Below are positions 694 through 60,030 of a stretch of 64,000 nt of DNA, in pieces. Origin of the DNA: a bacterium (lineage in GTDB: Bacteria; UBA8248); NCBI GenBank assembly GCA_965213685.1, contig CBDBZY010000064.1, forward strand, positions 480,001 through 544,000. Direction: 5' to 3'. Position 1 is the first letter of the stretch. The number at the start of each line of letters is the position of its first letter. A program made the position numbers and the translations under genes. Under the pieces are notes generated by a model. It was given only the letters and a program-made list of their open reading frames with translations. It did not search any database and had not been told where the DNA came from.

Positions 694-954
694 TTACTTC
701 TCAGCAAGTGGCCTCAACAAAACGGGCGAAATAGATGGTATCCGGACCACAGGAACTCCGCTCACCATAGCTCGCTGGAGAGAGGTGACCCCTGTATTGT
801 ACAAAGCTGCACGTAGCATTGCGTGCACCGTGTTTTTCTAACCAGCCGTGATTTCGGAAAACACACGGAAATTAATTACGGCTGGCTTGCATGAATAAAT
901 CGAAAACTGGGCCTAGACGTTAACAATCACCCAATGCGCATGCATGATTGCACT

Positions 955-2690: not shown

Positions 2691-5536
2691 ATTGTCCAAG
2701 GCATGCCGTGGAGGGTGTACGCTCTCATTTCAGTAATGAAAAGCAACTACAAGTATTGTACTTTAATGCAAGAAGTTTAACCCCAAAGTTGGATGAATTG
2801 CGTGTTCTCTGTGACTTAAGAAAACCAGACATTGTGTGCATTACTGAAAGTTGGCTATGTGAAGACATTGGTCCATCAGAATGCTCCATACATGGATACC
2901 ATTGTGTAAGATGTGATAGGCACAGACATGGAGGTGGTGTAGCATTGTTCATATCTGATCTGTTAGAGTCTCATGTAATTCTGTGTGGTCCTAACAAGCT
3001 AGAGCTGCTACTTGTCTCAGTTCACAATACACACCATCCCAACCACAAGTTATACATTGGTGTGTGGTATAGGCCACCAGACAACTCGGATGCTTTAGAT
3101 TCTTTATATTCTGTTCTGGAGACCCTTGACATTTCTATTTTTTCAAGATTTTTGTTGGTTGGGGACTTCAATGTTGATTTTTCAAACAAGCAGCATCCTC
3201 TCTTTTATAAGCTCCTCACTATATTGGATAGTTTTTTACTGGCGCAGGTGGTACCTGGTCCAACACACATCAGTTCCTCTGGAAATCAAACACTTATAGA
3301 CCTAGCCCTACTTTCAAATCCAGCTCTGCTGGTATCGTGTTCCATTACAGCACCTTTTAGTAACTCGGACCATGATGGAATAAGTATTTATCTCTTATGG
3401 AATAACATAGCATCCCCAAGCATTAAGACAAGAACAATATGGAGATATGAGTATGCGGATTTTGAGAGGGCCAATGTACTGATAAACACTGTTGATTGGT
3501 CACTCTTTTACACTGAGGCTGACATTGACAAGGCCTGGGAGTTGTGGTTGAGAACATTCTTGTCCATAATGAATGAATGCATTCCAAAGAAAACTATCAC
3601 CCAGAAGTGCACCCTTCCATGGATGAACAAGTTCATTCAGACTAAAATTAAAAAGAGAAACTCAGCATACAAAAGGGCAAAACAAACTAGAGTCTTTGAT
3701 GGTTACAAGAAACTTAGGAATGAGGTAGTGAATCTGTTGCGCATTTCGAAGAGAGACTATTTGAGGAAGTCATGTTTGGGAGGAAGTAAAAAGTTTTGGA
3801 AAGTTGTAAAGCATATCAAGAATTCATCCAACCATGCTATTCCAGCTTTAAGAGTGAAATCTACTGTTGCATCATCTAATGTTGAGAAAGCTACTCTATT
3901 GAATCTAACACTTGCAACTAACTTCAATCATAGTGTTCATCCATTGTCTCCTTCTAATATCCACATTTTCCAGGCAAATCCTTCATCACCAATATCCAAT
4001 GAAGTCCTTTGTGTAGAGGATGACATTTTTTGTTTATTAAACACTATTGATGTCACAAAAGCTTCTGGACCTGATGGAATATCTGGATACATGCTGAAGG
4101 GTACAGCGGAAGCTATCACACCAACAGTAACGCATCTGTTTAACCTGTCATTAAAATCTGGTAAGGTACCTGAGGCATGGAAAACATCATCTGTGGTTCC
4201 AATACCTAAGGCTCACAGACCATCTGATAATCCTATCAACTACAGACCAATTTCTTTGCTGTCTACAGTGAGCAAGCTTCTAGAAAAGCATGTTTATAAG
4301 CTGCTGTGGCAACATCTTAATGCAAATGGACTTGTATCTGATTCTCAATGGGGATTCTGCCCAAGTAGATCAACAGTTACAGCCTTACTGTCCACCTTTC
4401 ATGCAATATTTCAATTGTTGGAAAAGGGATCAGACGTGTGTCTAATATTCTTTGACTTGCGTAAAGCATTTGACAGTGTGCCACATGCTCCTCTACTTCA
4501 GCATCTAAAGGATATTGGGCTTAACTCACACATCCTCCAATGGATCTCCTCATATCTGTGTTGTAGAAAACAGTATGTTGTTGTTGAGGGAACATCATCC
4601 AGCACTACTTCTGTTCCATCTGGGGTCCCACAGGGATCTGTCCTGGGTCCCTTGCTCTTTCTGACATACATAAATTGTGTAGCTGATCTTGGCTTCTCTG
4701 ATGGAACATTGATCTCAATGTATGCTGATGACATACTTTTGTGGAAGCCCATCAAGTGCTCCAATGATTATGTCTACCTACAGACAGATATTAATAACAT
4801 TTCCAACTGTATTAAAAGCTTATATCTGTCACTGAACTCTTCTAAATGTAAGTACATCATTGCATCACGAAAGAGACAGCCTACACTACCATCTTCAGGG
4901 CTACATCTGAATGGTGAAGCTCTGGAACATGTTAGGAGTTATCAGTACCTGGGCATACTTGTCACTGAAACTCTTACTTGGTCTGAGCACATACAGCAAG
5001 TGTGCTCAAAGGCAAGAAAGCTAATTGGAATGATGTACAGGCAATTCTACTTCTGGACAAGCACATCTGTTCTTCGATCCATATACATAACATGTATTCG
5101 CCCTCACTTGGAGTATGCTGCTCAGCTGTGGGACCCGCATGTCAAGAGAAACATTCAAATGTTAGAGTCAGTGCAAAAGTTTGCATGTAAAGTGTGCTTG
5201 AAATGCTGGGACATGGACTATGATAACATGCTGCACTGTCTTGATTTACCTCTTCTTCGTGTCAGGCGTCAACATCTTAAGCTCATCACTATGTTCAACA
5301 TTATTAATGGAAACATAGTTTTTCCAGCAGGTATCTTCAATCTACACCAGCATTTGTCACAGAGAAACAATTCATCTGTATTTCACAGACTCCATTCTCA
5401 CACCAACTACTTCTATTTTTCATATGTACCTAGCGTTATTACTGTTTGGAATACTTTACCAGTAGACATAAGATCATCATCATCTGTTTCTGTTTTTAAG
5501 CATAACTTACCGCACTGGGCTCATGTCTTGTATTAG
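2684..5536 (+). CDS. LINE ORF2: APE endonuclease plus reverse transcriptase
   Basis: Endonuclease motifs YFNARS, ITESW, GDFN, SDH; RT motifs NYRPISLL, DLRKAFDSV, GVPQGSVLGP, YADD; uninterrupted 950 codons. Confidence 0.95.
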   Translation: MLNCPRHAVEGVRSHFSNEKQLQVLYFNARSLTPKLDELRVLCDLRKPDIVCITESWLCEDIGPSECSIHGYHCVRCDRHRHGGGVALFISDLLESHVILCGPNKLELLLVSVHNTHHPNHKLYIGVWYRPPDNSDALDSLYSVLETLDISIFSRFLLVGDFNVDFSNKQHPLFYKLLTILDSFLLAQVVPGPTHISSSGNQTLIDLALLSNPALLVSCSITAPFSNSDHDGISIYLLWNNIASPSIKTRTIWRYEYADFERANVLINTVDWSLFYTEADIDKAWELWLRTFLSIMNECIPKKTITQKCTLPWMNKFIQTKIKKRNSAYKRAKQTRVFDGYKKLRNEVVNLLRISKRDYLRKSCLGGSKKFWKVVKHIKNSSNHAIPALRVKSTVASSNVEKATLLNLTLATNFNHSVHPLSPSNIHIFQANPSSPISNEVLCVEDDIFCLLNTIDVTKASGPDGISGYMLKGTAEAITPTVTHLFNLSLKSGKVPEAWKTSSVVPIPKAHRPSDNPINYRPISLLSTVSKLLEKHVYKLLWQHLNANGLVSDSQWGFCPSRSTVTALLSTFHAIFQLLEKGSDVCLIFFDLRKAFDSVPHAPLLQHLKDIGLNSHILQWISSYLCCRKQYVVVEGTSSSTTSVPSGVPQGSVLGPLLFLTYINCVADLGFSDGTLISMYADDILLWKPIKCSNDYVYLQTDINNISNCIKSLYLSLNSSKCKYIIASRKRQPTLPSSGLHLNGEALEHVRSYQYLGILVTETLTWSEHIQQVCSKARKLIGMMYRQFYFWTSTSVLRSIYITCIRPHLEYAAQLWDPHVKRNIQMLESVQKFACKVCLKCWDMDYDNMLHCLDLPLLRVRRQHLKLITMFNIINGNIVFPAGIFNLHQHLSQRNNSSVFHRLHSHTNYFYFSYVPSVITVWNTLPVDIRSSSSVSVFKHNLPHWAHVLY

Positions 5537-13639: not shown

Positions 13640-15843
13640 ATGGGGGTCTCCACAAAGCAACAAACTGCCAACTATACCCTGAGGTATCTCCTGACTGTTT
13701 CAGCTTCTGATGTGGCAGAATTTGGTAGGTCCACGCACAGGAATAGATCAAGAACCACAAGTCCCTGGGCCATGAACGGACACATACATGTACATGTAGA
13801 CTTAACTTTGTGTTAAGACACAGCCAAAACGGGAACAATGTGGCATTGTGTGGGCTACATAACACTAGTAGTGAGCTATGGTACACTGAATTCTTGTGTA
13901 AGTAGGAGTTCAGAAGTGCGAAAGGTTTTGAGAACCGTACATGCTGTCCATACCCTTCGATATCTCCTCACTTCTCTCTTCCTCTGTTGCTATCCTCTTT
14001 GTGTCTCCCAGTAACCTTCCCACTAGACATCACAAAGACCAGACTACAGGTACAGGGTCAGTTAAACTGTACAGCTCCGTACAGAGGAATGACAAAGACA
14101 GCCCTGGGCATTGGTAAGGAAGGATTAAGATTCAGTGTACTAGGTTGAGTATGTGTTATATCCTTGGTGTTCTTGTTGCAGTCCATGAGGAAGGTTTCCT
14201 GAAGCTGTGGAGAGGAATACCACCTGCTCTTTTTAGACATTGCTGTGAGAATGTACAATGTCATGTAAAGACTTCATCTTAACAAATAGATTGTACGGAG
14301 ACTACATGTACTAGTTTGTACGACCGTTCTTGATTCATGATAGAGAACATTAAACATAGTTACATATGGTTTCTCTTAATCTCGTTTCTCTCTGCACACA
14401 GTTTACTCATCTCGAGTTCTGTTTTATGAGATTATCAGAAAACATGTCTTTAAACGGGACAAAAATGGCAGATTTCCACTCTGGTGAGGTGACCTTCAGT
14501 AACCAGTGTGCCTGTCAGTAGTGATCTGTTGCACTGTTGTTGCTGCTGCATGTTCTATGAACAACAACCGTGACACAGGAAATCAGTACCATCAGCAATG
14601 ATTGCTGGGGTGATGGGGCAGTTCTTGGCTAGTCCAACCGACCTGGTGAAGATCAGACTACAAGTGGAGGGGAAGAGATTGCTAGAGGGCCATCTTCCAA
14701 GGTTAGTGACATGAAGAAGGTGGTCAAGTAGAGCAGGGAGGCAGGGAGATTTGTAGGCACAAATCTTTCCTGGTAAAGCCTGCTTGAGAGGCGAAGCCTG
14801 CCAGGAGTAGTGCTTCCAACCTCTCTCCTAGCCACAAAGTGAGGGAGGGAGAAGGAAAAGTAGGGGAGAGAGAGAACAGAGATAATGAGTCCCTACTCTG
14901 ACATAGGCATCACGGCATGTGGGACGCATTCCGGGCTATAGTGAGATCAGATGGGGTAAGAGGACTGTGGAGTGGTTGGGTACCGAACTGCCAGAGAGCG
15001 GCACTGGTGTGTCTTGGAGGTAGGGATATCTGGTGACATGCTGAGCTACACCTTATTATGTCTCAACTATGCCACTTTCCACTGCAGGACTCACAACCTA
15101 TGACATAGCGAAGCAAATGATACTCAGAAACACTAGGCTTGAAGATGGTACAACTACTCATACTTTGTCAAGGTACACCTTCATATACATCTAATTTTAA
15201 TCTACTTTCAAACTTCTACTTTTGTTTTCAAAAGCCATTTTTAGTTTCTTTTGAAGTGTACAGTAGATGCTCACGTAGTTTCAATTTTTATGTTGTCAGT
15301 ATGCTGTTTCTCTCTTCTCCCACCCTCTCTCTGTCTGTCTGTCTGTCTGTCTGTCTCTGACATGTGCAGTGCATGTGCTGGTCTGGTAGCCTCTATTTTG
15401 AGCACCCCAGCTGACGTGATAAAGTCCAGGATGATGAGTCAGAGTTATGAGAATGGTAGAGGAATCCACTACCCATCAACTCTGCAATGTTTACACTTGA
15501 CTGTAAGAGCTTACCACTATGCATACAGTGCTCAACAATATTGCTAATGTAGATGTTATTTTCCAATTTCTCACAGGCTCCTCTTAGGTGTATTATTGTT
15601 TCCCATCTCCATACAGGTTCGTGGTGAAGGATTCTTTGCTCTCTACAAAGGTTTCTTTCCCACGTGGATAAGACTGGTGATTATGCAATACTCATAAACC
15701 TTCCACAACTACCAACATCAGATTCTGCTTCTAATGTACATACATTTCATTTCCTTATCCCCATACTGCAGGGTCCATGGTTGTTAACCTTTTGGATTGT
15801 GTATGAGGAGATCAGAGTATTGGCTGGAATTGATACTTTTTAG
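13640..15843 (+). CDS. UCP4: Mitochondrial uncoupling protein 4-like carrier, paralog A (10 coding exons)
   Basis: Exons 13640-13724, 14012-14113, 14182-14244, 14402-14483, 14579-14701, 14907-15019, 15088-15172, 15370-15502, 15617-15676, 15772-15843, all GT-AG with consistent phases. Three carrier signatures [24 protein letters not shown]; UCP4-like PNCQRAALV and PWLLTFW. Confidence 0.88.
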
Positions 15844-16654: not shown

Positions 16655-19600
16655 ATGGCGCCTTCTCCCAGGGATAAGGACCCTTTTGTTCTGAAATACC
16701 TTCTGACAATATCAGCTGCAGCTGTTGCAGAGTTTGGTAAGGACTCTGAAGTGATAGAATACAAGTAGATAAGCCAAGTGGATACAGACATTCTAGAAGC
16801 AGCACACAGGTCTATTTCAACTGTTTTCTGTTTCCTTACAAACACAAGTAATAATGTGTTCATGTTAACCTTCACTCTGACTCTGTCAGTTCCTGTTTCT
16901 GTATATAACCTTCCTTCCTACTATCGCATCTTATGACCCAATCTCTGTCCTCACCCTCCTCTACTCTTCCTCCCTTTCTCACATCCTTTCTTTCATTTTC
17001 CTTTCTACCTCCCCTCGTTCTCCCATTCCTCCTCTTCCTCTCTCTCCACCTACTCTTCCGTTACTCCCTACTCCATGCTCCCTCTGTTTGTATCAACCAA
17101 ACTTCCACCCCTTCATCTCACTCACTTTATTCTCCTGCACGTATCTGTGTGTCATCTCCTTTCATTTTGTTTATTGTTTGCACTTCCCCTCCCCTCTCCC
17201 CTTTTCCCCTCCCCCCCTTTCTCTCTATGCCTCTTTACACTCCCCCTCCCTCCCTTCCCCCTCCGCCCCACCCCCCCCCACCCCCCCCCCCTTTCTCTCT
17301 ATGCCTTTTTACCCCCCCCCCCCCCCCCTTCCCCTCCCCCTTCTCTCTATGCCTTTTTGCTTCTTCCTGCTTTCCTCCCTTTGTATTTTAGTAACCTTCC
17401 CTCTGGACATCACCAAAACTAGGCTGCAAGTGCAAGGCCAATTGCAGTCAGCAACTCCATACAGAGGAATGATAAGTACTGCCATCGGCATAGGTCAGTT
17501 ACTTTTAAAACATCCCCACTCACAATTATTATGCTAAGTCTAGTGTGAGTGGTATAGAGGCATAATATTTCTTCATGTAGTTCGGGAAGAAGGATTCCGG
17601 AGATTATGGAGAGGGATCAAGCCAGCCATACTAAGGCACACTAGTAAGGCTAAAATGCAGGGTGCTAGATCTAGATGGCAACTCTGAAGGTTACATACAA
17701 GCTGTGTGACTATGAAGACTTAAGGCCAGCCATCTGTGTTGCACGTGCATGACATGTAATACCCACACTCCCAGTCACCCCAGCACAGCTGATGAGGCCT
17801 GGTATTGGCCGAAATGCATCCTGCGCATTGGGTGACTGTTTAACATCTAGGCCTAAGGGCTGTTCGCAGCTTAGGGAGTTGTGGTTCTCGACTTACTCAT
17901 GTATACTGTAGTTCACCTCAGTTGTGTATACATGTGAGTGTGTTGTATGTACAATGGAGGCATGGCTGCTAATTGTTCTTCCTGCAAGTCTATTCTGGAT
18001 GCCGGATGTCATTTTATGAGGCCATTCGAGACCACATATTCAAAAGAGATAGTTCAGGAAGATACCCTCTCTGGTAAGGCACGATGCACCTGTGTTTGGA
18101 GTTTGAATGTGCATGTATTTAGACAGACACATCTCAAATACATGTATATAAGATATTATCAATCCCTCATGTAAGTAGATTTACTATGGACACACCTTGT
18201 ACATATGCATATTCTGAGCAGTAACAGCATCAGTGCCACTTAGAGCGTTTTTGTAGCTCAGCCAGACACCTCTTACAGCTGAGTCTTGCCATGCATTTAC
18301 AGTAATTATCTATGGCATATTTCACTACATCTGAAAGCCATTCCTGATAATTTCTGAGGTAGTGTCATAAGCCTAAGCTAATAGATTGCTGGCCACAGTT
18401 TGTGGATTGCTACAGGCAGTAGATCACTTCTAGATAATACAGCCCTCCATTGCAAGTCTGTGTTCCCACATGCAGGAAAGCAATCCCAACTGGTATGATT
18501 GCAGGGGCAGGGGGACAATTTTTGGCTAGTCCAACTGACCTGGTGAAGGTCAGACTGCAAGTGGAGGGGAAACGAGTGCTAGAGGGTCACCCTCCAAGGT
18601 CAGTTACACACCCCAAAACTAACAAAGGAGAGGCAGGGGAGGGTTCTGCTACCCATCTTGCACCTGATGAGAGACGGGGTCTACTACAAGTGTCTGTGTA
18701 GTAAAGTGATAGACATAAATACACAAGAAGTGTACATGCACGTACATGTATTTTGCTTCATGCTGGCCACTACACATGCATGCACAGATGTGGAGTTAAC
18801 CATTTCTGAGCATGACTAGCTCACGTTCCTGAGTGTGACCAACATGTATATACATATGTACATGCATTGCAAGATAGATCCTGGATTAGTTTCCTCGCAC
18901 TAATGCACTCACTATTAGTGTTTTATAATCAGGCTTGACTGTAGGAATAGGTAGAAAGATCATTGGATATAGAGGCAATAAGATTGGGAAGGAGGGGAAC
19001 AGTTACTACACAACAGAAAGAAGTGAGTTCCACAAGCCTATCATGACCTCACCCTCTCTCCCAGGTACCGTGGCACATGGGATGCATTTCGCTCCATTGT
19101 GCGTTCAGAGGGTGTGAGGGGGTTGTGGAGTGGCTGGGCACCAAACTGCCAGAGAGCTGCTCTAGTGTGCCTTGGAGGTAGGAACATTCTTGTACAATTC
19201 ATTTTCATCAAGAGGTGGAGGGATGGTTTTATGTTTTACCTTCTTGTGGATACTGCACTGCCTACCTTTTCTTTCTTTGCTTCCTGGCCTGAAATTGCTA
19301 CATCTGCATGACAATAATTATAGTTGTCTCACTCTCTTTGCACAATAATAGCGGACATTAGTGTTTCAATCACTCTGCACTTCAGCTGTGCTAGAAAATA
19401 TAATGAACCAAATTTTTGCAGTGCTGGAACTCAAAATTGTAATTGTAAGAAAAAGATATGAAAGTGAAATGTAGCAACACATTTCATACTTGGGTTATAT
19501 AATTCAAAAGATAGACCAATAATTACATATGATGCTAAGTATGTTGGTGTTCACGAATGTAGAAAGCTCTATAGTCATGGTAGTGCTATCCCTGCATAGA

Positions 19601-20771
19601 GAGTGTGCCACCTCTCTGACATAGGCTATGTTGATACATATTATATGTAATAGCAGAAGAGAGTAGAGGGAGTATACTAAGGTTTATAGTGTAGAGTTGG
19701 GTAGGGTATAGATTATCTTCTTTCATGAGTGAAATTTCTTACCCATAGATCTTACTACATATGACACAGTGAAACAAGCAATACTCAGAAACACTAATTT
19801 AAAGGATAATGCCATTACCCATGCTATGTCAAGGTAGGTAATAAACAGTGTTTGTATTATATAGGCTTAGAGATTTGTGTCTCGGTTCAGTGCTCCTGTT
19901 CAACTGCTACCGTGTATGAATGTTGACACACATGTAGCGGGGCTTCAGGTCTAGTATCTGCTACCATGGGGACACCAGCAGATGTGGTAAAGACGAGAAT
20001 GATGAGCCAACCTTATGAAAATGGAAGAGGACTCTACTACTCCTCTACTATGGACTGCTTGGTCTCAACAGTCAGTGAAGCACACTGCTCTAGTTGCCTG
20101 TGTTTGTGAATATTATGATTTCAACTATGGTATATGTTTGTTCTCTCTCTACAGGTCAGACAAGAAGGAGTCTTTGCTCTTTACAAAGGCTTCATTCCAA
20201 CTTGGTCTAGAATGGTATATTTCTATTCCTCATTCATGTATCAATATTACCAAATACTTGGTTACTGAGTGTAAATTTAGCACCAGTGCTTTCCTTTGTG
20301 TACAGTGTTCCTACCATGCTTACTTTGTAACCTGACTCCTCCATATTATATTGGCTAAGAACTGCCTATTTCAAAATATAGTGTTATAATGTGAGTGTGC
20401 TGCAGCACTGCACTTAAGAATGTAAACACAAAAGAGTGATGAGTTCATACTCAAGAAGGTCATTTTTTCCAGCAGTTTCACCATTCCCATCACTCATAGT
20501 GCAACTCCTTGTTTATAGGAAGGCAGCTACTTATCTCCAGGTGCACCAATGACATTTATAGCTCCTATTTTCAATATTGCATTCCTCATCAATGAACAAT
20601 TTCAAAGCAGTAGCTCATTTTCTTTGGTGTGTCTGCATGCTTCCACGTAGTTTGTTAGTAGTTCTAATGTGCAATACTATGTGCTATCTCTCTCCTCAGG
20701 CTCCATGGTCACTAACATTTTGGCTGGTGTACGAGGAGATTAGAGTTTTAGCTGGTATTGGTAACTTTTAG
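16655..20771 (+). CDS. UCP4: Mitochondrial uncoupling protein 4-like carrier, paralog B (10 coding exons)
   Basis: Exons 16655-16736, 17392-17493, 17581-17643, 17989-18073, 18476-18598, 19065-19177, 19749-19833, 19938-20070, 20155-20214, 20700-20771. Motifs [55 protein letters not shown]. Confidence 0.92.
16945..17380. repeat. Polypyrimidine/poly-C low-complexity tract
   Basis: CT-rich intron 1 with three ttctctctatgcct units separated by C-runs. Confidence 0.85.
17772..17838 (+). ncRNA. Minimal type I hammerhead ribozyme
   Basis: cagtcaccc-ca-gcacag CTGATGA GGCC tggtatt GGCC GAAA TGCA TC^ ctgcgc-att-gggtgactg. Core boxes are intact, stem II has 4 bp, stem III is palindromic and stem I is extended. 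Confidence 0.75.
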
Positions 20772-22920: not shown

Positions 22921-24900
22921 TTAATAATAATAATAATAATAATAATACTTTTATTGACAACGGAAGCCGGGGTGGCTTATTTGCCATGCAGTGGTACACA
23001 AATGCAATTTAAATGACTTATACACAAAAGCAGATAGTTCACATAGAATGTGCACATTTGTGGATGTTAGCAGATATATGAACTTGTCAGTTGTGCTGAG
23101 CCACTGGAAAGGCGGATAATAAGCATGAACCATTGCAAAAAGTTCCCGACGTAATGTCGAGAATCTGGGACACACACAAATGAAGTGTATCTCATCTTCC
23201 ACCATCTGGCATCTCCGACACAGCCGAAGGGGTACAGGAGTAGGTGTTGGCTTATGATACCTGCCGACTTCAATTTCAAGGCGATGGCAGCTTAGTCTTA
23301 ATCGAGTGAGGGCCACTCTATGCTTTACATTTGCCACGATAGATAAATATGGTTCCTGCTCAAACTTTCTTTTAAAAAGTTGATAGGTTCTTAACTTATT
23401 TCTACCACTTCCTCTTGTACTAGTTGTTCTATGGAGCTTCTGATACCAGGATTGGATGTACTGGTCTCAGTAACGTAGCATTATTAAGTTGGTTAACTCT
23501 TTGTCACAGCCATTATATGTAAAGGCAGAAGCAAAACCTGCCCCCTCAAATATTGCTTGCACCTTGGTTAGCCAACATTGTTTGCCTTTTTCAAGCAAGT
23601 GCTTTAGATGAAGAATTGCATGTCTGAGTAGTACTGGAGCATCCTCTGAGCAGAGTCTGTTCCAGTATCTCAAAATCCTCTCTTTCCATAACAGATGGAT
23701 AGGTAGTTCACCAAGTTCACCTCGAATAGCTGCTGTAGTTGCATTAGGTGGGAGGTAAAGAACAAACTTAAGGTAGTGGTCTTCAACTCTCTCCAAATCT
23801 TGCCCTCATGAAACCCCCATAACTCACAACCATAAAATAGAATGGGTACAATCATTACATCATAAAATGTTAAGGCCACTGGGACTGGAGGGTAGAGCAG
23901 CTTGGAGAGTGCTGATTTAAGGGAAAAAACTGCCTTTTTTCCTTGATTACTAAGATGTCTTTTAGCTGTCCTGAATTCCCCATTTGATGTTACCCACACT
24001 CCCAGATACTTGTATGCACTCACTCTCTCCAGTGGGATACCTTCCCAGAAGAATGGCAATTTATCATGATTGTTACCAAATATGCAAATCTTAGTTTTCT
24101 CAGTATTGATTATTAGGTTCCACTTGTGACAGAATGTTTGCAGGGAGCTCAGGTGTTTTCTCAAACCATTTGCACTTGGAGACAATAGCAAAACATCATC
24201 TGCAAACATTAATATACTTAAAAACATATCATTTAATTGAGCTCCATCATGGTTGCCCAAAATGTCTGACTCCAGATCACTTATGAATAGGCTGAAGAGT
24301 AGTGGGCTAAGGTTGCATCCTTGTCTCACACCTTTCTGACTTGGAAATGGCTCTGTACTCTCACACCTGGACACTCTGACTCTCGATACAGCCTGGAGAT
24401 ACATTGATTTGATTACGTTAAGGCACTGCTGACTTATTCCTAATGCAACCAGTTTATTCCATAATAAATTGTGATTCACATTATCAAAAGCTTTACTGAA
24501 ATCCACAAAACAGGCAAAGAGAGCTCTCTTTTGCAACTTTGCACTTTGAATGAGACTGTTAAGGATGAACAAACAATCTGGTGTTCTCCGATTCTTCCGA
24601 AATCCAAATTGTGTTTCAGGTAGTAGCTATAGACCTCTCATTTCAGCCCAGTCATTAAGTCTGTTGAATAGCACAGTAGTGAAGAGCTTTCCAATACAGT
24701 TGAGTAGTGTTATTCCTCTATAATTATTAGGGTCCCATTTGCCACCTGCCTTGTGAATAGGGCATATAACTCCAGTAGACCAAGAAGCAGGATATTCACC
24801 AGTTCGCAAAACCTGATTTAACAGGATGGTAATTAGTCGTTCATTTAAGGCTTTGTATACATCTGGTGGGATTCCATCATCACCTGGAGATTTTCCTGAT
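22921..24900 (-). mobile_element. 5'-truncated, frameshifted non-LTR retrotransposon (RTE-X-like)
   Basis: RT motifs NYRGITLL, DFSKAFD, GVRQGCNLSP, FADD; C-terminal CxxC...H...C; (TTA)n tail. Absent from the duplicate locus at about 29900. Confidence 0.88.
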
Positions 24901-41289: not shown

Positions 41290-43271
41290 TAATACATTAA
41301 GAAGAAGATGCCTCTTACATCCTACAATCCATAACTCTTCTAAACTACAAATTTCTGAAACACAACTTCAGCATAAAATGTTGGCAGCCAAAGCTAGTTT
41401 TGAAGCAGATTTAATTCAAGAATCTTCTCCAAAGAATATCTCAAGGGTTTATAGATATATTAACAGCATCACTAGGCATGATACAATACCACCAACTGTC
41501 AGCCTGGACTCCCATATCGCCACCTCTGATATTGAAAAGGCTAATCTCTTCAACACATTTTTCCACTCAGTCTTTACACACAGCTCCTACAACTTGCCTC
41601 CTCTAGAAATACTACCCATGCCTCCTTCAACAATTAGTGACATAACTATATCTGAGTCTGACGTTTATGATGCGATGACTTCATTGAACCCAACTAAAGC
41701 AATGGGAATTGATGGAATTGGACCAAGATTACTAAAGCATTGTGCTTTAGCACTGTATCAACCTCTCCACCATCTATTTACTTTGAGCCTTGTTCAGCAT
41801 TATTTGCCCCAAGAGTGGAGATTTCACCTGATCACACCTATCTACAAGTCAGGAAATAAGTCTTCAGTGAAAAAATATAGACCTATCTCACTCCTCTGCA
41901 TTGTTTCTAAAGTACTTGAAAAAATTGTTTATGACAAAATTGTTTCATTTGTTTCCAGATCCATTTCTTCGTGTCAGTTTGGTTTCAGGCAGAATCACTC
42001 CCCTCTTCAACAGTTGCTACTATTCTTGAACTCTGTACATGAGTCCTTCAGCACAACTACACAGACTGATGTTATCTACCTTGATTTCAAGAAAGCTTTC
42101 GATAGCGTTGCACATAATGAGTTGCTCGTCAAACTATGGTCTTTTGGCATCCAAGGAAATCTTTGGAAATGGTTTAGAGGTTACCTTACTTCAAGAATGC
42201 AGTGTGTGTCTATAAATACTTCCATCTCAGCCCAATTACCTGTTATTTCTGGAGTGCCTCAAGGTAGCATTCTTGGCCCACTATTATTTTTAATCTTTGT
42301 GAATGACCTTCCTCCATCAGCGTCAACCTCAAGTGTTTTTCTCTTTGCAGATGACACTAAATGTCTCAAAACTATCCGTAACATCTCTGATTGTCTTTCT
42401 ATGCAGAAAGATCTGCAAAACCTAACAATATGGAGTCAGTGCTGGAAATTGATCATGAATTTCAATGTTGCAAAGTGTGCTCTCCTCCGCTTCTCCTCTG
42501 GATGTTCATCTGTTATCTTCAATTACACCATCAATGACAACTTAATCTCTGCTCAAGAAACTCACAGAGATCTAGGCATCATTATGTCCAGTGATCTCTC
42601 ATGGAGAGAGCACATGAAAAGTATTCTGTGCAGAGCTTACAAAACTCTCAACCTTGTTCGACGCTCATTTAGCAGAGGACACAGTCCTCAAACCAAGAAG
42701 ATCATCTATTTGTCCTTAATTCGTTCACAGCTTACATATTGTTCACAGATTTGGCGTCCCCACCTTCTGAAAGACATAGTAGCTCTTGAAAAGATCCAGC
42801 GCCGTGCAACAAAATATGTTCTGAATGACTACACATCAGACTACAGATCTCGTCTTATTGCTCTCCACATCCTTCCCTTGATGATGCAACTAGAGCTATT
42901 TGATGTCATGTTCTTTATTCGATGTCTGAAAGCACCAACTGATGCCTTCAACATATATGACCATGTTACCTTTCACACTAGCTCTACACGTTCTTCCACC
43001 CACCTCAAGTTGAAACATGTTTTGTCAAGAACAAACTCTGCAAGACATTTTTATTTCAACAGAATTCCTAGATTGTGGAATTCTCTGCCTACCTTTGACT
43101 TGGACCAGTCCATTTCCTCTATTAAGAGAGAGGTAATGCGTAACGCACTTCTGGCCATTAGTTTCCACTAATGGACCCTCAGTACATCTGTCTTTGATCG
43201 TATCACCACACTATCCACTCCCTTTCATTTCTGTACTGTGAAGCATAATAATAATAATAATAATAATAATA
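41290..43271 (+). mobile_element. 5'-truncated CR1/L2-group LINE with (TAA)n tail
   Basis: RT ORF 41378-43171; (TAA)n at 43245-43271. Confidence 0.9.
41378..43171 (+). CDS. LINE reverse transcriptase (truncated ORF2)
   Basis: YRPISLL, DFKKAFDSV, GVPQGSILGP, FADD. Confidence 0.88.
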   Translation: MLAAKASFEADLIQESSPKNISRVYRYINSITRHDTIPPTVSLDSHIATSDIEKANLFNTFFHSVFTHSSYNLPPLEILPMPPSTISDITISESDVYDAMTSLNPTKAMGIDGIGPRLLKHCALALYQPLHHLFTLSLVQHYLPQEWRFHLITPIYKSGNKSSVKKYRPISLLCIVSKVLEKIVYDKIVSFVSRSISSCQFGFRQNHSPLQQLLLFLNSVHESFSTTTQTDVIYLDFKKAFDSVAHNELLVKLWSFGIQGNLWKWFRGYLTSRMQCVSINTSISAQLPVISGVPQGSILGPLLFLIFVNDLPPSASTSSVFLFADDTKCLKTIRNISDCLSMQKDLQNLTIWSQCWKLIMNFNVAKCALLRFSSGCSSVIFNYTINDNLISAQETHRDLGIIMSSDLSWREHMKSILCRAYKTLNLVRRSFSRGHSPQTKKIIYLSLIRSQLTYCSQIWRPHLLKDIVALEKIQRRATKYVLNDYTSDYRSRLIALHILPLMMQLELFDVMFFIRCLKAPTDAFNIYDHVTFHTSSTRSSTHLKLKHVLSRTNSARHFYFNRIPRLWNSLPTFDLDQSISSIKREVMRNALLAISFH

Positions 43272-55300: not shown

Positions 55301-58300
55301 AATGTAGAGGGTGTACTTTGAACTCGAAAGCATGTAATTATTACGATACAGTACGTGCGCGTGGTCATGTGATAGTCATGTCGAACCGCCTCCGCCAGAC
55401 AACCACAATAAGCAGGCTAATTGCCCAGTACATTTGAGAGCAGCAGGCACGTATTGTACTGCCTCCTGCTGCAAACCTATGTACTGACCTAAGTGAGAGG
55501 CCTCTAAGAGACATACATGGCTTCAAGTGTAAAAGAGAAACTGAATATGAAACTGTGATAGTACTACATTCTGAAGAACCACATTTCAGCTGGGAGATAT
55601 GTGGCAGTTATCTACATGTTCTGTAAGGGTGATCTATGTATAGTTAGTGCATGTAGAGCAAAGACCACATGTGGGGCTCTAGCTATGGTAGTATTAAGGT
55701 ATGATGTGCATAAATACCTTGTGGCCAATATCCTTGCAAGTATATCTACTGTTACCAGCTAAAACTACACATGAATAGAGAACATTTAGGAACATTTTAT
55801 AGGCAGCCATCATCTCATGTTGCAGGGGCATAGGAAGATGCTTTTGGATGGGGGGGCTGACCTTGTGGTGGCCCAACCAGGCAATTTTTTTTATGTGCAT
55901 GCTCTGAAATCAATCCTGGTGCATTCTGAGACAAATTATAATTGATAGGAATTATACTTAAAATGGGCCCATACTCTTAGAGCAAACTAGACAGCTACAG
56001 CTACTAAAATTTCAGCTAAAGCAGCTAATTGCTAAAGCAGCTTCACAGTATCTATTACAAGTGCAATAAATGGGGGGTGTGGCCCTTCCATAAACATGGG
56101 GGGGCATTATAAAGCCCCCCCAGCCCCCCTGCTTCTTACGCCAGTGTGTTGCTATTTTTGACAGCTTGTTTGATGTTATTTGTTCATTAGATGTTTCTTA
56201 TTTTTCTAATTATTTTATTCTTCTTGGTGATTTTAATGTTCATATGCTGTCACCCTCTTCTCTTTGCTATCATCTCAATTCTATTTTACATAGATTCTCT
56301 CTTGTACAGATTGTTACTGAGCCCACTCACATCAAACACGATGGATCTTCATCCCTGCTAGACCTTGTTATAACTTCTACTCCGGAAGCTGTTTCCACTT
56401 GCTCTACTCTTCCTCCATTGGCCAATTCAGATCACTATGGAGTCCTTATCAATTTTCAGTGCAAGCTGGTTAGAGTAACAAGGAAAAGAAGATTTGTATG
56501 GAGGTATGAGCATGCTGATTTTACCTTGACTTGTGCACTGTTGAGATGCTTTGACTTTGGGCACCTTTTTGATGGAAGATCAATTGATATGTGTTGGACT
56601 CAATGGAACAATGCATTTTTGGAAGTTATGAATAGCTGCATTCCTAAGGCCATTTTGCCTGAAAGGAAGTCACCCACATGGATGAGCAAGAAAATTGTTC
56701 AACTAATAAGGAAAAGGAACTACCGTAGATCGGGAAATTTTCGTCGTTAAAAATATTTCGTCGGTGCCTGTAACGTCGAAATTTTAACACGCGAAATATT
56801 TTCCACGTCGAAAAATAAGAACACGCGAAATATTTTCCAAGTCCAATAATAAGATCGCGAAGCACTTCAGCGAGTAGCCTCGTACCCAGGCCTTCAACGC
56901 GGGGACCTGGGTACGAGGCTATTCAGCGAGTACACATGTGAAGCAAATGGCTGTGTTGAACCAATCGGTTCTCTACCTGATCCTAGAGGAGACTCGATCC
57001 ATGTACGCAAGTGTACAGATACCGTAAACGCCGTTAAAATTTTGTCAGGTTTATAAAATTTCGTGTTTTTAATTTTCGTCGGTGTACTGGAGCGACGAAA
57101 ATATTTTAACGCGACAATTTGACAGACGAAAGTTTCTACAGTTGAAAATTTCCCGATCTACGGTACTACTTCAGAAAGCACAAAGCAACCAAGTCTACCA
57201 TCATGCATGGAAAATACAGGTCTCTCAGAAATAAAGTGGTTGCAAGTCTACGTCAGTCGAAGTGCAGTTTTTACATGAATCTCAAGCCAAAGTCAAGCAA
57301 GACTTTTTGGAAAACTGTTAATACTCTTTCTAGAAGTAAGTCAGCCATACCAACTCTTGTTCATAACAATGTTGCTGTTGCTTCCGATAGGGGTAAGGCT
57401 GAAGCTCTTAATGCCCATTTCACAAAGTGTTTTAGCTATTCTGTTCCTCCTATCATCTGTGGTAGCTGGCACTATTCCACTTCTGATGAGATCTCAGACC
57501 TACTTTGCAGTGAGGAGGAGGTAGAATTTCTTCTTTCATCTGTTGACCCCAACAAAGCCACTGGCCCTGATGGCATATCAGCTAGAATGCTGAAATCAAC
57601 TGCTGCTAGTATTGCACCTGCAGTTATGGCAATCTTCAATTTGTCTCTGATTCAAGGCCAGTTGCCTATGGAGTGGAAAGTGGCTCAAGTCATACCAATA
57701 CCCAAGTCTGAACAACTATCTAATCCTACTAACTACAGACCAATTTCCTTGCTCTCCATTCTGAGTAAATTGTTAGAAAGGTATGTGCAAACCCACCTCC
57801 TCAACCATTTTCACTTCTCAAAAGGAAAATCCACTACTGGTGCTCTCCTGTCTGCAACACATGCCTGGCATATGGCTCTTGAAGCTGGAGAGGATGTTTG
57901 TTGTGTATTTTGGACTTGACAAAGGCTTTTGATAAGGTTCCGCATTTATCTCTCTTACAAACACTTGCTGAACATGGAATTAATGCACACTTATTGAATT
58001 GGTTATATGACTATGTAAGCCAGAGGTCCCAGTTTGTAGTTGTGAATGGTGAGAGGTCAAAGTGCTCAAATGTCATTTCTGGAGTACCTCAAGGATCTGT
58101 GCTTGGTCCTCTTCTCTTCATCATCTACTTGGATGGCATAACAAAACTTCCACTTCATGATGGATCTTGCTTATTGTTATATGCTGATGACATCCTACTG
58201 TATCGCCAGACACAACATCATGAGGACTATCTACTTCTGCAACAGGATATTGCTAGTCTGGAATTATGGCTGCAGCAAAAATATTTGCAGTTGAATGTTA

Positions 58301-60030
58301 CCAAATGTAAGTACATGGTTTTGACTAGGAAATACCATCCCGATCCCTCACATCCTTAGCAATCCAAGGAGCTCCTATTGAGAGAGTTTTTGAGTTTAAA
58401 TACTTAGGAGTATGCTTGACTCACAACTTATCTTGGAAATCTCATATACTACAGATATCTAAGAAGGCTAGGAAGCAGGCAGGAATTATTTACAGAACCT
58501 TTTATAAATATTCAAATCTTGACTGCCTGAAGCAATTGTATCTGTCATTTGTGAGACCTCATCTTGAATATGCTGCACCTGTGTGGGATTCCTACTGTTC
58601 CTCTCATGTTGATATTCTAGAGAAAGTCCAAAAGTTTGCTCTTCGTATTTCCTACAAGGCTTGGAAGGAACAGTACACATCTCTTCTTGAGAGATCTGGA
58701 CTGCAGCCTCTGGCTATACGAAGGAAACTTTTGACACTCTGCTACCTATATCATCTGATACAGGGTAATGTCACTTTTTCTGAGGCTCCAATTATTCCTA
58801 GGAACCTTGACCCCCAGCTTAGAAACTTCTACCCACAACTTCTTTGCCAGCCATATTGTACATCCACCTCATACATGTTCTCATTGTTTCCACATGTTAT
58901 TGCATTATGAAACGCTTTACCTTCTCCATTGCATTGTGTTGATACATTTTCTGAGTTTAAGTGTAATGTTTTGTCCTTCCTGCAGGCTGATTGTGTTGTG
59001 TTGGTGTAATATGGGTGCATTGTTTATTAGGAACATGCTACTAATATATCCCTGCGTGTATGTGCAAACTTTTCATAGGAAAAAAAAGGTATACTGAAAG
59101 AGTATGGCCTGGAAAATGAGAATACAGATTGATAGTGGTTAAGTATATTTGATTCCTTTATCCACGTGCACAACATTCACGATTAACTGGTTCTCTGAAT
59201 ACCTTTACAGTGGAACCCCTCTAAAGCGGACACCATTGGGACCAGGATTTTTTTCCGCTATAGCGAAGTGTCCGTAGCTCAGGGGTTTAGGTGCTCACGT
59301 GTGTGAATGCGCGCGCATGTAGCTAGTGTCCGTATAGGCTATACACACTCATAGGCTGAGGTCAAGATGCGAAAATCTGACTTCGCTGGGAATCCAATCG
59401 TTCGTGAGAAGCCGCCACATGTACCGTACATCACAGATACGTGTAGTTTAGTCTTGACCTACGTGAAGATCATGAGCTTCAATGCTATATATACTTACCA
59501 AGTTGGTATTATTGCTGTATCTACAGTCTAGTTTGTTGTAGCTATTGGGATATAGATGTCCGTAATACAAAATATCGAGGTGTCTGTATCTGAGGGGCTG
59601 ATTTGTGAACTTGAACTTTATATAGGCATGCGTTTGAGACCTTTGATGTTCCTCGTTTTTCGGGAGTCCAGCATAAAGGGATTTACTTTACAATACTAAA
59701 CTGTCCGTTGTGCGGGGTTTTCTAGTATTGCGAGTGTACAATTGGGAACGGATTACTGTCCGTTATACGGAGTAGCGTGGTGTCCGCTATTCAGGGGTTT
59801 CTAATGTATTCAGTCTATGGAGAAACGATCGGGACTTTCAGAACTGTCCGTTATATCGTGGGTGTCCGCCGTTGAGGGGTGTCCGTTAAGCGGGGTTCCA
59901 CTGTACTCCTTAAACCATAAAATACTCACTCACCATTTCCTGCTGTGTCTCCTATGTTGGTAGTAGCCAACATCAAGGCAGAGAGTAGAAAGAAGTTTAC
60001 TGTAACTTGTACCATGCTTCTCTTCTGCAT
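49390..60030 (-). CDS. Ig-like/fibronectin type III single-pass receptor with tyrosine-motif tail (one chimeric out-of-frame exon)
   Basis: Signal exon 60030-59934; phase-1 domain exons 54874-54581, 54521-54177, 54085-53732 (Ig), 53613-53296 (FN3), 53226-52957 (Ig), 52896-52535 (chimeric), 52476-52204, 52131-51790, 51690-51358 (Ig), 51303-50986 (FN3), 50931-50662 (Ig), about 50585-50406, 50338-50243, 50174-49899 (FN3); TM about 49840-49705 (acceptor unresolved); tail 49639-49390. Ig D-x-G-x-Y-x-C and FN3 W...Y...L-x-P...Y-x-V-x-A-x-N motifs. Confidence 0.8.
55823..56146. mobile_element. MITE with 5-bp TSD (hAT5-like)
   Basis: TIR caggggcataggaag/cttcttacgccagtg; TSD tgttg; interrupts the LINE endonuclease frame. 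Confidence 0.82.
56723..57163. mobile_element. Tc1/mariner-pogo type MITE
   Basis: TIR ccgtagatcgggaaattttc/gaaaatttcccgatctacgg; TA TSD; removal restores the LINE frame RNYYFRKA. Confidence 0.88.
56875..56921. mobile_element. 47-bp hairpin MITE with 9-bp TSD
   Basis: tagcctcgtacccagg...cctgggtacgaggcta flanked by ttcagcgag twice. Confidence 0.88.
59208..59903. mobile_element. Tc1/pogo (Tigger-like) MITE
   Basis: TIR cagtggaacccc...cggacacc / ggtgtccg...ggggttccactg; TA TSD. Confidence 0.85.

Follow-up and report, generated by a model that had tools for sequence, protein, structure and literature searches.

What is a self-cleaving RNA motif doing inside an intron of a mitochondrial carrier gene, and does it work for the gene or for something that landed in it? 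The question is raised by a hammerhead ribozyme motif at 17772-17838 (+) in a stretch of 64,000 nucleotides (the window; C64:480001-544000), where it lies in sense orientation within the second of two tandem carrier genes, here called A and B. A preliminary description of this DNA had taken the motif to be a solitary intronic ribozyme that could affect pre-mRNA processing of only one of the two paralogs. We come to a different view: with a probability of roughly 85%, the motif sits in a neutral, 5′-truncated copy of a retroposon, and the ribozyme served the element rather than the gene.

The motif agrees base for base with what had been described, including its one A·C mismatch, and all bases of the core are present. 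From the 5′ end, the outer strand of helix I (CAGTCACCC, 17772-17780) forms 9 bp with 17830-17838, and is 92% paired over 29 copies of the repeat family introduced below. It is followed by CA at 17781-17782, which is invariant in those 29 copies and forms the 5′ side of an internal loop opposite AUU at 17827-17829; this is the “loop 1” position of type I hammerheads, from which a tertiary contact with loop 2 could be made. The inner 5′ strand of helix I (GCACAG, 17783-17788) faces CUGCGC at 17821-17826 with five of the six pairs formed, and the A·C mismatch (17785 with 17824) is a CpG transition in the window copy, since the family majority has G at 17785. Then come the core C3-A9 (CUGAUGA, CTGATGA as DNA, 17789-17795; read directly and by pattern scan), helix II with four GGCC/GGCC pairs and the 7-nt loop 2 UGGUAUU (tggtatt; 17796-17810), the core bases G12, A13 and A14 (GAA, 17811-17813) with G12 intact, and helix III from A15.1 to U16.1, which is the self-complementary hexamer AUGCAU (ATGCAT, 17814-17819). 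C17 lies at 17820, and the 3′ strands of helix I close the motif at 17821-17838 (CUGCGC, auu and GGGUGACUG; as DNA, CTGCGC at 17821-17826, att at 17827-17829 and GGGTGACTG at 17830-17838). The type I pattern is complete, both in the core (C3 U4 G5 A6 N7 G8 A9, G12 A13 A14, the A15.1-U16.1 pair and an N17 that is not G) and in helices I and II, which flank the core, with helix I open and the G10.1-C11.1 pair present. Standard hammerhead numbering puts the predicted cut between 17820 and 17821, after C17820 as had been proposed, and self-cleavage may occur there. Within one molecule helix III can form at most one base pair (A15.1-U16.1, with a 4-nt loop), and between two copies 6 bp are possible. 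Such a build, with its palindromic helix III, matches the dimer-acting class to which the motif had been assigned: metazoan type I hammerheads with a minimal self-complementary helix III are described as acting as dimers, the short palindrome impeding monomer cleavage (PMC4209133).

The motif is not solitary. The source assembly is a mixed bin of 49 contigs at ~65% GC (3.07 Mb) and 22 contigs at 42-53% GC (4.90 Mb; 7.97 Mb in total), and the window lies on a 1.6-Mb contig (C64) of the low-GC, host-like group. A copy search, as had been proposed earlier, was made by BLAST of 17400-18200 against the assembly and returned 85 high-scoring segment pairs, corresponding to 84 copies or fragments, all on low-GC contigs; the family searches reported here covered these 4.9 Mb. 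The whole ribozyme is spanned by 37 of the copies. We refer to this dispersed, non-coding repeat as family 1. The window copy is 206 bp long (17698-17903, +), its limits being taken from the ends of the family BLAST matches, many of which end on the left at 17698-17699 and on the right at 17899-17904. Other copies continue upstream of 17698, six of them ~100 bp further and three ~330 bp further (the longest copies reach ~540 bp), and the window copy is therefore 5′-truncated. We compared four public runs at this locus (X1, X5, X7 and X8; all are contig sets), in which the sequence upstream of 17698 was common to 46, 33, 7 and 53 contigs. Summed contig depth, which is not a copy number, reached 624457 over 17744-17977 in X1 against ~175 in the flanks, and the excess was similar in X5, X7 and X8, at hundreds to thousands of times the flanks. 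The search for public runs containing this stretch listed none of RNA. Family 1 is clearly abundant. A second family 1 fragment lies in the window itself at ~885-945 (-), far from genes A and B; strongly 5′-truncated and diverged, it has lost all but the 3′ strand of helix I and the 3′ box, and is absent from the BLAST list.

The ends of the copies tell how they were made. The 3′ ends are sharp, with 48 copies ending at 17895-17912, and the 5′ starts range widely, between 17698 and 17872. In the window copy, the 3′ terminal box is GACTTACTCATG at 17890-17903; its family form is GATTT[AG][AT]TCATG, and TACAT often comes directly after it. An ATGTACA-type motif is found at 20 of the 48 3′ ends (background 3.9%) and at 21 of 71 5′ junctions (background 3.3%). 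Because of the fixed 3′ end, the scattered 5′ ends and the ATGTACA-type junctions, we read these copies as products of retroposition, and the pattern is, to judge from the junctions, that of target-primed reverse transcription with microhomology at a microsatellite-like target. In the assembly, 5′ ends are not in excess at the cut site, where two of 71 starts fall within ~2 nt of 17821 and ~1 is expected. Run X8 has 19 contigs with a break immediately before 17821, the 5′ end that cleavage is predicted to produce; this is a weak hint that the family is cleaved in vivo. Five copies on contig C18 that all start at 17787 were considered as a truncation hot spot, and this was rejected: they represent one insertion inside a repeat unit of >9 kb. 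This unit occurs at five loci (~48.4, 131.8, 577.8, 636.8 and 796.8 kb), which are 93-95% identical, and holds a reverse transcriptase (RT) fragment along with the one embedded 5′-truncated hammerhead copy; it may be a large transposon or a segmental duplication.

Genes A and B were recognised as tandem genes on the + strand by Pfam Mito_carr matches. P0001, a 312-aa homologue whose closest solved relatives are UCP1 (E 3.9e-51) and UCP2, maps nine exons in each of them (tblastn). They are placed in the UCP clade only, and “UCP4” is a label of the preliminary description rather than an assignment made here. Gene B, a UCP-like mitochondrial carrier, extends over 16655-20768 (+; Mito_carr and tblastn with P0001), and its tandem paralog without the element, gene A, over 13906-15840 (+; Mito_carr and P0001 exon mapping). 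The nine homology-supported exons of gene B (+) lie at ~17388-17500, 17568-17643, 17989-18074, 18480-18599, 19060-19176, 19748-19830, 19936-20070, 20155-20220 and 20700-20768, and a probable first exon lies at 16655-16735 (+; weak match, E 0.009; GTAAGG donor). The element occupies a 345-nt intron (17644-17988, +; GTAAGG donor, AG acceptor, P0001 exon mapping) between the exons for residues 68-87 and 88-117, and the motif is 177 nt from the donor and 168 nt from the acceptor, in the sense orientation. The placement in an intron of gene B stands as first described; its number, three, holds only when the weakly supported exon at 16655-16735 is counted. The counterpart intron of gene A (~14245-14399, ~155 nt) no longer aligns with that of gene B, and neither a pattern scan nor BLAST gave a family match inside gene A, in agreement with the earlier statement that the paralog lacks the ribozyme. 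The difference between 345 nt and ~155 nt roughly matches the length of the element (206 bp), in keeping with an insertion that took place after the tandem duplication. The stretch 17150-17350 (+), which immediately precedes exon 2 of gene B, is CT-rich, of low complexity and proline-coding in appearance, has ~160-240 matches in the assembly, and probably represents a simple repeat rather than an element; its part 17240-17350 was also skipped as repeat in the mapping of run contigs.

Has the ribozyme been kept for a use at this place? Compared with the family majority, the window copy differs at 14 of 206 sites, all of them transitions and six at CpG; this divergence of 6.8% compares with a family median of 9.6%. 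In helix III, both inner positions are CpG in the family majority, and the CpG transitions of the window copy at 17815 and 17818 retain the palindrome. The commonest core lesion in the family is G12 to A, again at a CpG, in 15 of the 45 copies that have all core columns. Decay is mostly at CpG, and the pairing among copies, discussed below, shows no sign of selection after insertion. Rather, the ribozyme appears to have been selected in the source elements, a view that we base on three observations. First, an unrelated second family (family 2, ~160 bp) has the same core, with three of the six helix I pairs and two of the four helix II pairs changed on both sides. Second, in a copy from another assembly the outermost pair of helix I is a compensatory G-C, where the window copy has C-G. 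Third, a sister copy with a 2-nt longer helix III (ACGCGCGU) scores 37.5 bits on the Rfam model RF00163 (Hammerhead_1), whose gathering score is 34.

These observations bear directly on the possibility of a domesticated intronic ribozyme, which would cut the pre-mRNA of gene B only and tune its splicing or level, as has been proposed for amniote intronic hammerheads. The sense-strand position in an intron, the intact core and helix II, and the absence from paralog A would all suit such a role. In addition, the insertion is not private to the assembly, because a contig of run X5 bridges its 3′ junction with 42 letters inside the element, and contigs of X1 reach 28 and 30 letters into its two ends, which is below the 31-letter rule. 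No joint that skips 17698-17903 is seen among the joints listed (15 of 36), and nothing follows from this about an empty site. However, the copy is one of 84 siblings, and the core is kept in 28 of 45 copies, so that an intact core is the default state. The copy has a fresh mismatch in helix I and is about as diverged as its siblings, its monomer has next to no helix III, and the transcript holds no second copy. The HH9 and HH10 hammerheads of amniotes (as described in PMC7761336) likewise lie in the sense strand of introns of protein-coding genes. Yet they are single-copy and conserved at orthologous sites (PMC7761336), whereas the window motif is multi-copy and shows no locus-specific constraint, its presence across samples consisting of run contigs that reach into the element. 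The Rfam HH9 model gives the sister copy 21.4 bits, against a gathering score of 52. We consider domestication very improbable, and the effect on pre-mRNA processing that had been suggested finds no support in the transcript or in the pairing among copies discussed below.

The 3′ end of family 1 turned out to be shared. The box GATTT[AG][AT]TCATG(TACAT) is common to family 1, family 2 and two tRNA-headed families. Helix III of family 2 is an 8-nt palindrome, ACAGCUGU; RF00163 gives the family 29.9 bits, and the copies seen carry a mutated G12 or A15.1. One copy (C41:335872-335916, -, locus L033) cleanly interrupts another repeat, at a site of the ACATGTA type. Five further copies (C16:11210-11364, C16:45315-45470, C16:67294-67448, C4:8829-8977 and C4:37824-37984) have identical flanks and are therefore one insertion that was later duplicated. 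Families 3 and 4 are tRNA-derived short interspersed nuclear elements (SINEs) that end in GATTT[AG]ATCATGTA(CAT), with tRNA-Thr-like and tRNA-Ser-like heads according to ARAGORN. Examples are C64:752597, C64:785864, C41:471098 and C53:23260 for family 3, and C64:1263122, C64:1500456, C64:1081637 and C41:328450 for family 4. ARAGORN found tRNA-like structures in three of five sequences of each, one of the family 4 matches being on the opposite strand, and a tRNA-like head in none of the three longest copies of family 1, for which the true 5′ end of the family may be unsampled. An Rfam E-value scan of five loci likewise gave no tRNA, 5S or 7SL match. Family 1 has in common with SINEs a 3′ tail that also occurs on other short retroposons, a fixed 3′ end and a variable 5′ end, and lacks, in these scans, a head of the polymerase III type (derived from tRNA, 5S or 7SL). 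The longest copies contain no long open reading frame (ORF) and no RT adjoins any copy, and family 1 behaves, by its sequence pattern, as a partner-dependent short retroposon. The common 3′ box suggests one RT partner for families 1 to 4, which may be a long interspersed nuclear element (LINE) or a Penelope-like element.

The preliminary description had associated the motif with Penelope-like elements. In its strongest form, this link would make the window copy a solo terminal repeat (pseudo-long terminal repeat, pLTR) or the 3′ tail of an autonomous Penelope-like element, left by 5′ truncation. Such elements are reported to carry type I hammerheads in their terminal repeats and to show 5′ truncation, partial tandems, tails and microsatellite targets (PMC4209133; PMC8557442). 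As described there, their hammerheads are likewise of type I, their helix III is palindromic or absent, dimers are proposed for them, and most occur as single motifs from truncated elements; partial tandems and microsatellite targets (PMC8557442) are further points of likeness. We see truncation, a microsatellite-like junction motif and partial tandems, for example in the region of C64:1038581 and in one contig where a 3′ end at 17901 is followed by 25 letters and then by position 17785 of another copy. In addition, GIY-YIG and RT-like ORFs exist elsewhere on the low-GC contigs (C64:195334-198553 and C18:31864-32382). However, 5′ truncation, partial tandems and a microsatellite bias, while fitting Penelope-like elements, are equally compatible with LINE-driven retroposition. 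No copy of family 1 runs into an ORF, the three longest stopping ~330 bp upstream, and none lies beside the RVT_1 or GIY-YIG loci as part of one same-strand unit, so that the hammerhead is not seen in direct repeats flanking an RT plus GIY-YIG ORF. The build of the ribozyme is also different: it is “canonical”, with 6 bp and 4 bp, rather than that of the minimal hammerhead ribozymes (min-HHR) described in PMC4209133, which have a helix II of 7-8 bp, a helix I of 4-5 bp and an extra base before helix II, features that the family 1 ribozyme lacks. Finally, the 3′ box in common with tRNA-derived SINEs points to a SINE-type dependence, for which the partner need not be a Penelope-like element. The proposed link was not confirmed, and we regard this origin as unlikely.

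One of the two loci just mentioned, C64:195334-198553 (-), is a run of ORFs in which a GIY-YIG match precedes an RT-like ORF (“...VLVPADKAANNVVVVCKRYY...”) and has no adjoining copy of the hammerhead family. Its domain order is that of Naiad-type Penelope-like elements, which are reported to be without canonical hammerheads. A family 1 fragment 1.2 kb from an RT was also considered as a link to a partner, and was rejected since this RT lies in a separate 3.2-kb insertion.

How, then, does family 1 relate to retrozymes? Its “canonical” build is the one given as typical of animal non-LTR (long terminal repeat) retrozymes (PMC7229834), and the likeness goes further in what is described of these elements (PMC7229834; 10.64898/2026.07.22.740005): they are short, non-coding, low-GC and non-autonomous, with many copies and scattered monomers, and their ribozyme has a 6-bp helix I with an internal loop, a 4-bp helix II and a very short palindromic helix III. 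Single dispersed or intronic monomers derived from retrozymes are common, and in Xenopus 43.9% of copies overlap introns (10.64898/2026.07.22.740005). However, retrozymes are defined in these accounts by head-to-tail tandems of 150-450 bp and by circular RNAs, whereas family 1 is dispersed, 3′-anchored and 5′-truncated, with unit boundaries away from the ribozyme cut site. In other words, we find the non-coding repeat with its canonical type I hammerhead, and no head-to-tail tandem repeats in the 4.9 Mb. The locus might still be an active retrozyme source that yields small circular RNA, given its intact core and its sense transcription along with the host gene. Against this, excision needs two cut sites and gene B has one hammerhead; moreover, the copy is 5′-truncated, the assembly holds no tandem array, and the sequence after 17903 is heterogeneous, with an agreement of 0.44 in 17 contigs of run X1. 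We find an active source here extremely improbable. Another parallel is offered by Sm-alpha and Sj-alpha of schistosomes, which are short SINE-like retroposons with an active type I hammerhead, dispersed in the genome and dependent on a partner RT. They differ in having a polymerase III type head, where the three longest copies of family 1 show no tRNA-like head. We found no published sponge hammerhead element in a literature search whose reach ended short of much of the older hammerhead work and of supplementary tables. The window element is a real but ordinary member of the known retrozyme-like and SINE-like hammerhead elements.

Several of our results weigh against the reading as a retroposon copy with a dimer-acting ribozyme. 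The Rfam search that had been proposed earlier gave no match in the window at gathering thresholds, and none at E values up to 10 on 17600-18000; we attribute this to the minimal helix III. For the 67-nt monomer, the predicted minimum-energy fold is a competing one (-29.6 kcal/mol), which is more stable by 2.3 kcal/mol than the hammerhead-compatible fold (-27.3 kcal/mol). Pairing in the helices amounts to 88.8% across 29 copies and drops to 27-38% once the partner strands are shifted, but neither pairing nor covariation exceeded column shuffles, as 103 and 107 of 500 shuffles reached the observed values. The copies thus give no structural evidence beyond common descent. For dead copies such a covariation result is expected, and it says nothing for or against the structure. 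From the other side, the complete core leaves activity at the gene B locus possible. We found no tandem dimer or array of family 1 in the 4.9 Mb, where arrangements were only partial and spaced, and the dimer model is thus without genomic support here. Several copies are not independent, five lying in the one >9-kb repeat and others in duplicated contigs. An autonomous partner with the 3′ box was not found in the 4.9 Mb either: no convincing tail was seen downstream of 60 RT loci, with the box motif at five of them, and in a tail-motif scan of the low-GC contigs the longest upstream ORF had 312 aa and stood beside a chance-looking match.

The missing Rfam match at the window copy would also be expected if the motif were a chance match to the hammerhead consensus. 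This is refuted by the specificity of the motif. Within the 64-kb window, the pattern CTGATGA-N(8-30)-GAAATGCATC has a single match, which is on the + strand, and 100 dinucleotide shuffles gave no match. A general type I descriptor found 20 matches in the 7.97-Mb assembly, 19 of them in family 1 and all on low-GC contigs. In addition, the sister copy passes RF00163 (150 of 951 candidates were scored among the sister loci), and families 1 and 2 differ from each other in a compensatory manner. Beyond the assembly, an exact-pattern scan gave no matches among metagenome contigs and one among genome contigs, in another metagenome-assembled genome (MAG), where it is the sole copy.

Taking the evidence together, we propose that the hammerhead is an RNA-processing module of a short, non-coding, non-autonomous retroposon, retrozyme-like or SINE-like, of which a 5′-truncated copy would have inserted in sense into intron 3 of gene B after the tandem duplication. 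For the element itself, the role of the ribozyme would be to cleave element transcripts after C17, most likely as a dimer of two copies, as helix III is only a palindrome. An RT acting in trans would then copy the RNA from the conserved 3′ box onto nicked target DNA of the ATGTACA type, which would lead to fixed 3′ ends and ragged 5′ ends. At the gene B locus, the copy would be transcribed only within the pre-mRNA, with no partner copy nearby. Since it lacks such a partner and its CpG decay is like that of its siblings, the locus copy is most likely a neutral passenger, with slow cleavage if any and probably no effect on the gene. For one Penelope-like element, ribozyme mutants were reported to leave insertion in vitro unaffected (PMC11167929).

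The low-GC contigs have introns and 107 RVT_1 matches, and are eukaryote-like and rich in transposons, although the assembly carries scores for a prokaryote genome (completeness 94%, contamination 3.7%). Part of the window locus was found in public runs labelled “sponge metagenome”, one of which covered 30 of 30 bins. The window is probably host DNA of sponge origin and not bacterial, binned together with a symbiont. RVT_1 matches within the window lie at 4205-4957 (+), 23994-24758 (-), 41858-42487 (+) and 57850-58335 (+), two of the four in open frames of 971 and 642 aa, and the surroundings of the carrier genes are retrotransposon-rich. On contig JAHRAH010000185.1 (41538-43965) of another public MAG, titled Gammaproteobacteria, an 82%-identical copy of the hammerhead element has an (ATGT)n microsatellite beside it. 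This MAG, too, seems to have received host DNA in binning.

For gene B, the finding has little consequence: the motif rides along in a common repeat, and we see no indication that it regulates the carrier gene. For the elements themselves it may say more. Curated Rfam thresholds miss most copies, whose helix III is only a palindrome, and such motifs are therefore undercounted in genome annotation. In this sponge-like genome, type I hammerhead elements are dispersed and 5′-truncated, as against the tandem arrays of the retrozyme literature. The RT that moves animal retrozymes has been left open between LINEs and Penelope-like elements (PMC7229834), the latter being argued for in a 2026 preprint (10.64898/2026.07.22.740005), and a 3′ end common to tRNA-derived SINEs bears on this question. 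Four unrelated families with the same box GATTT[AG][AT]TCATG(TACAT) and ATGTACA-type sites lead us to a broader speculation, offered with low confidence: hammerhead elements might spread as 3′-anchored, SINE-like retrocopies by way of the RT partner of tRNA-derived SINEs, rather than as tandem arrays made from RNA circles. If so, the ribozyme would be a portable 5′-processing module acquired by different short retroposons, and the many sense intronic copies with an intact core, the window copy among them, could be cut in trans-assisted dimers with the abundant RNA of their family.

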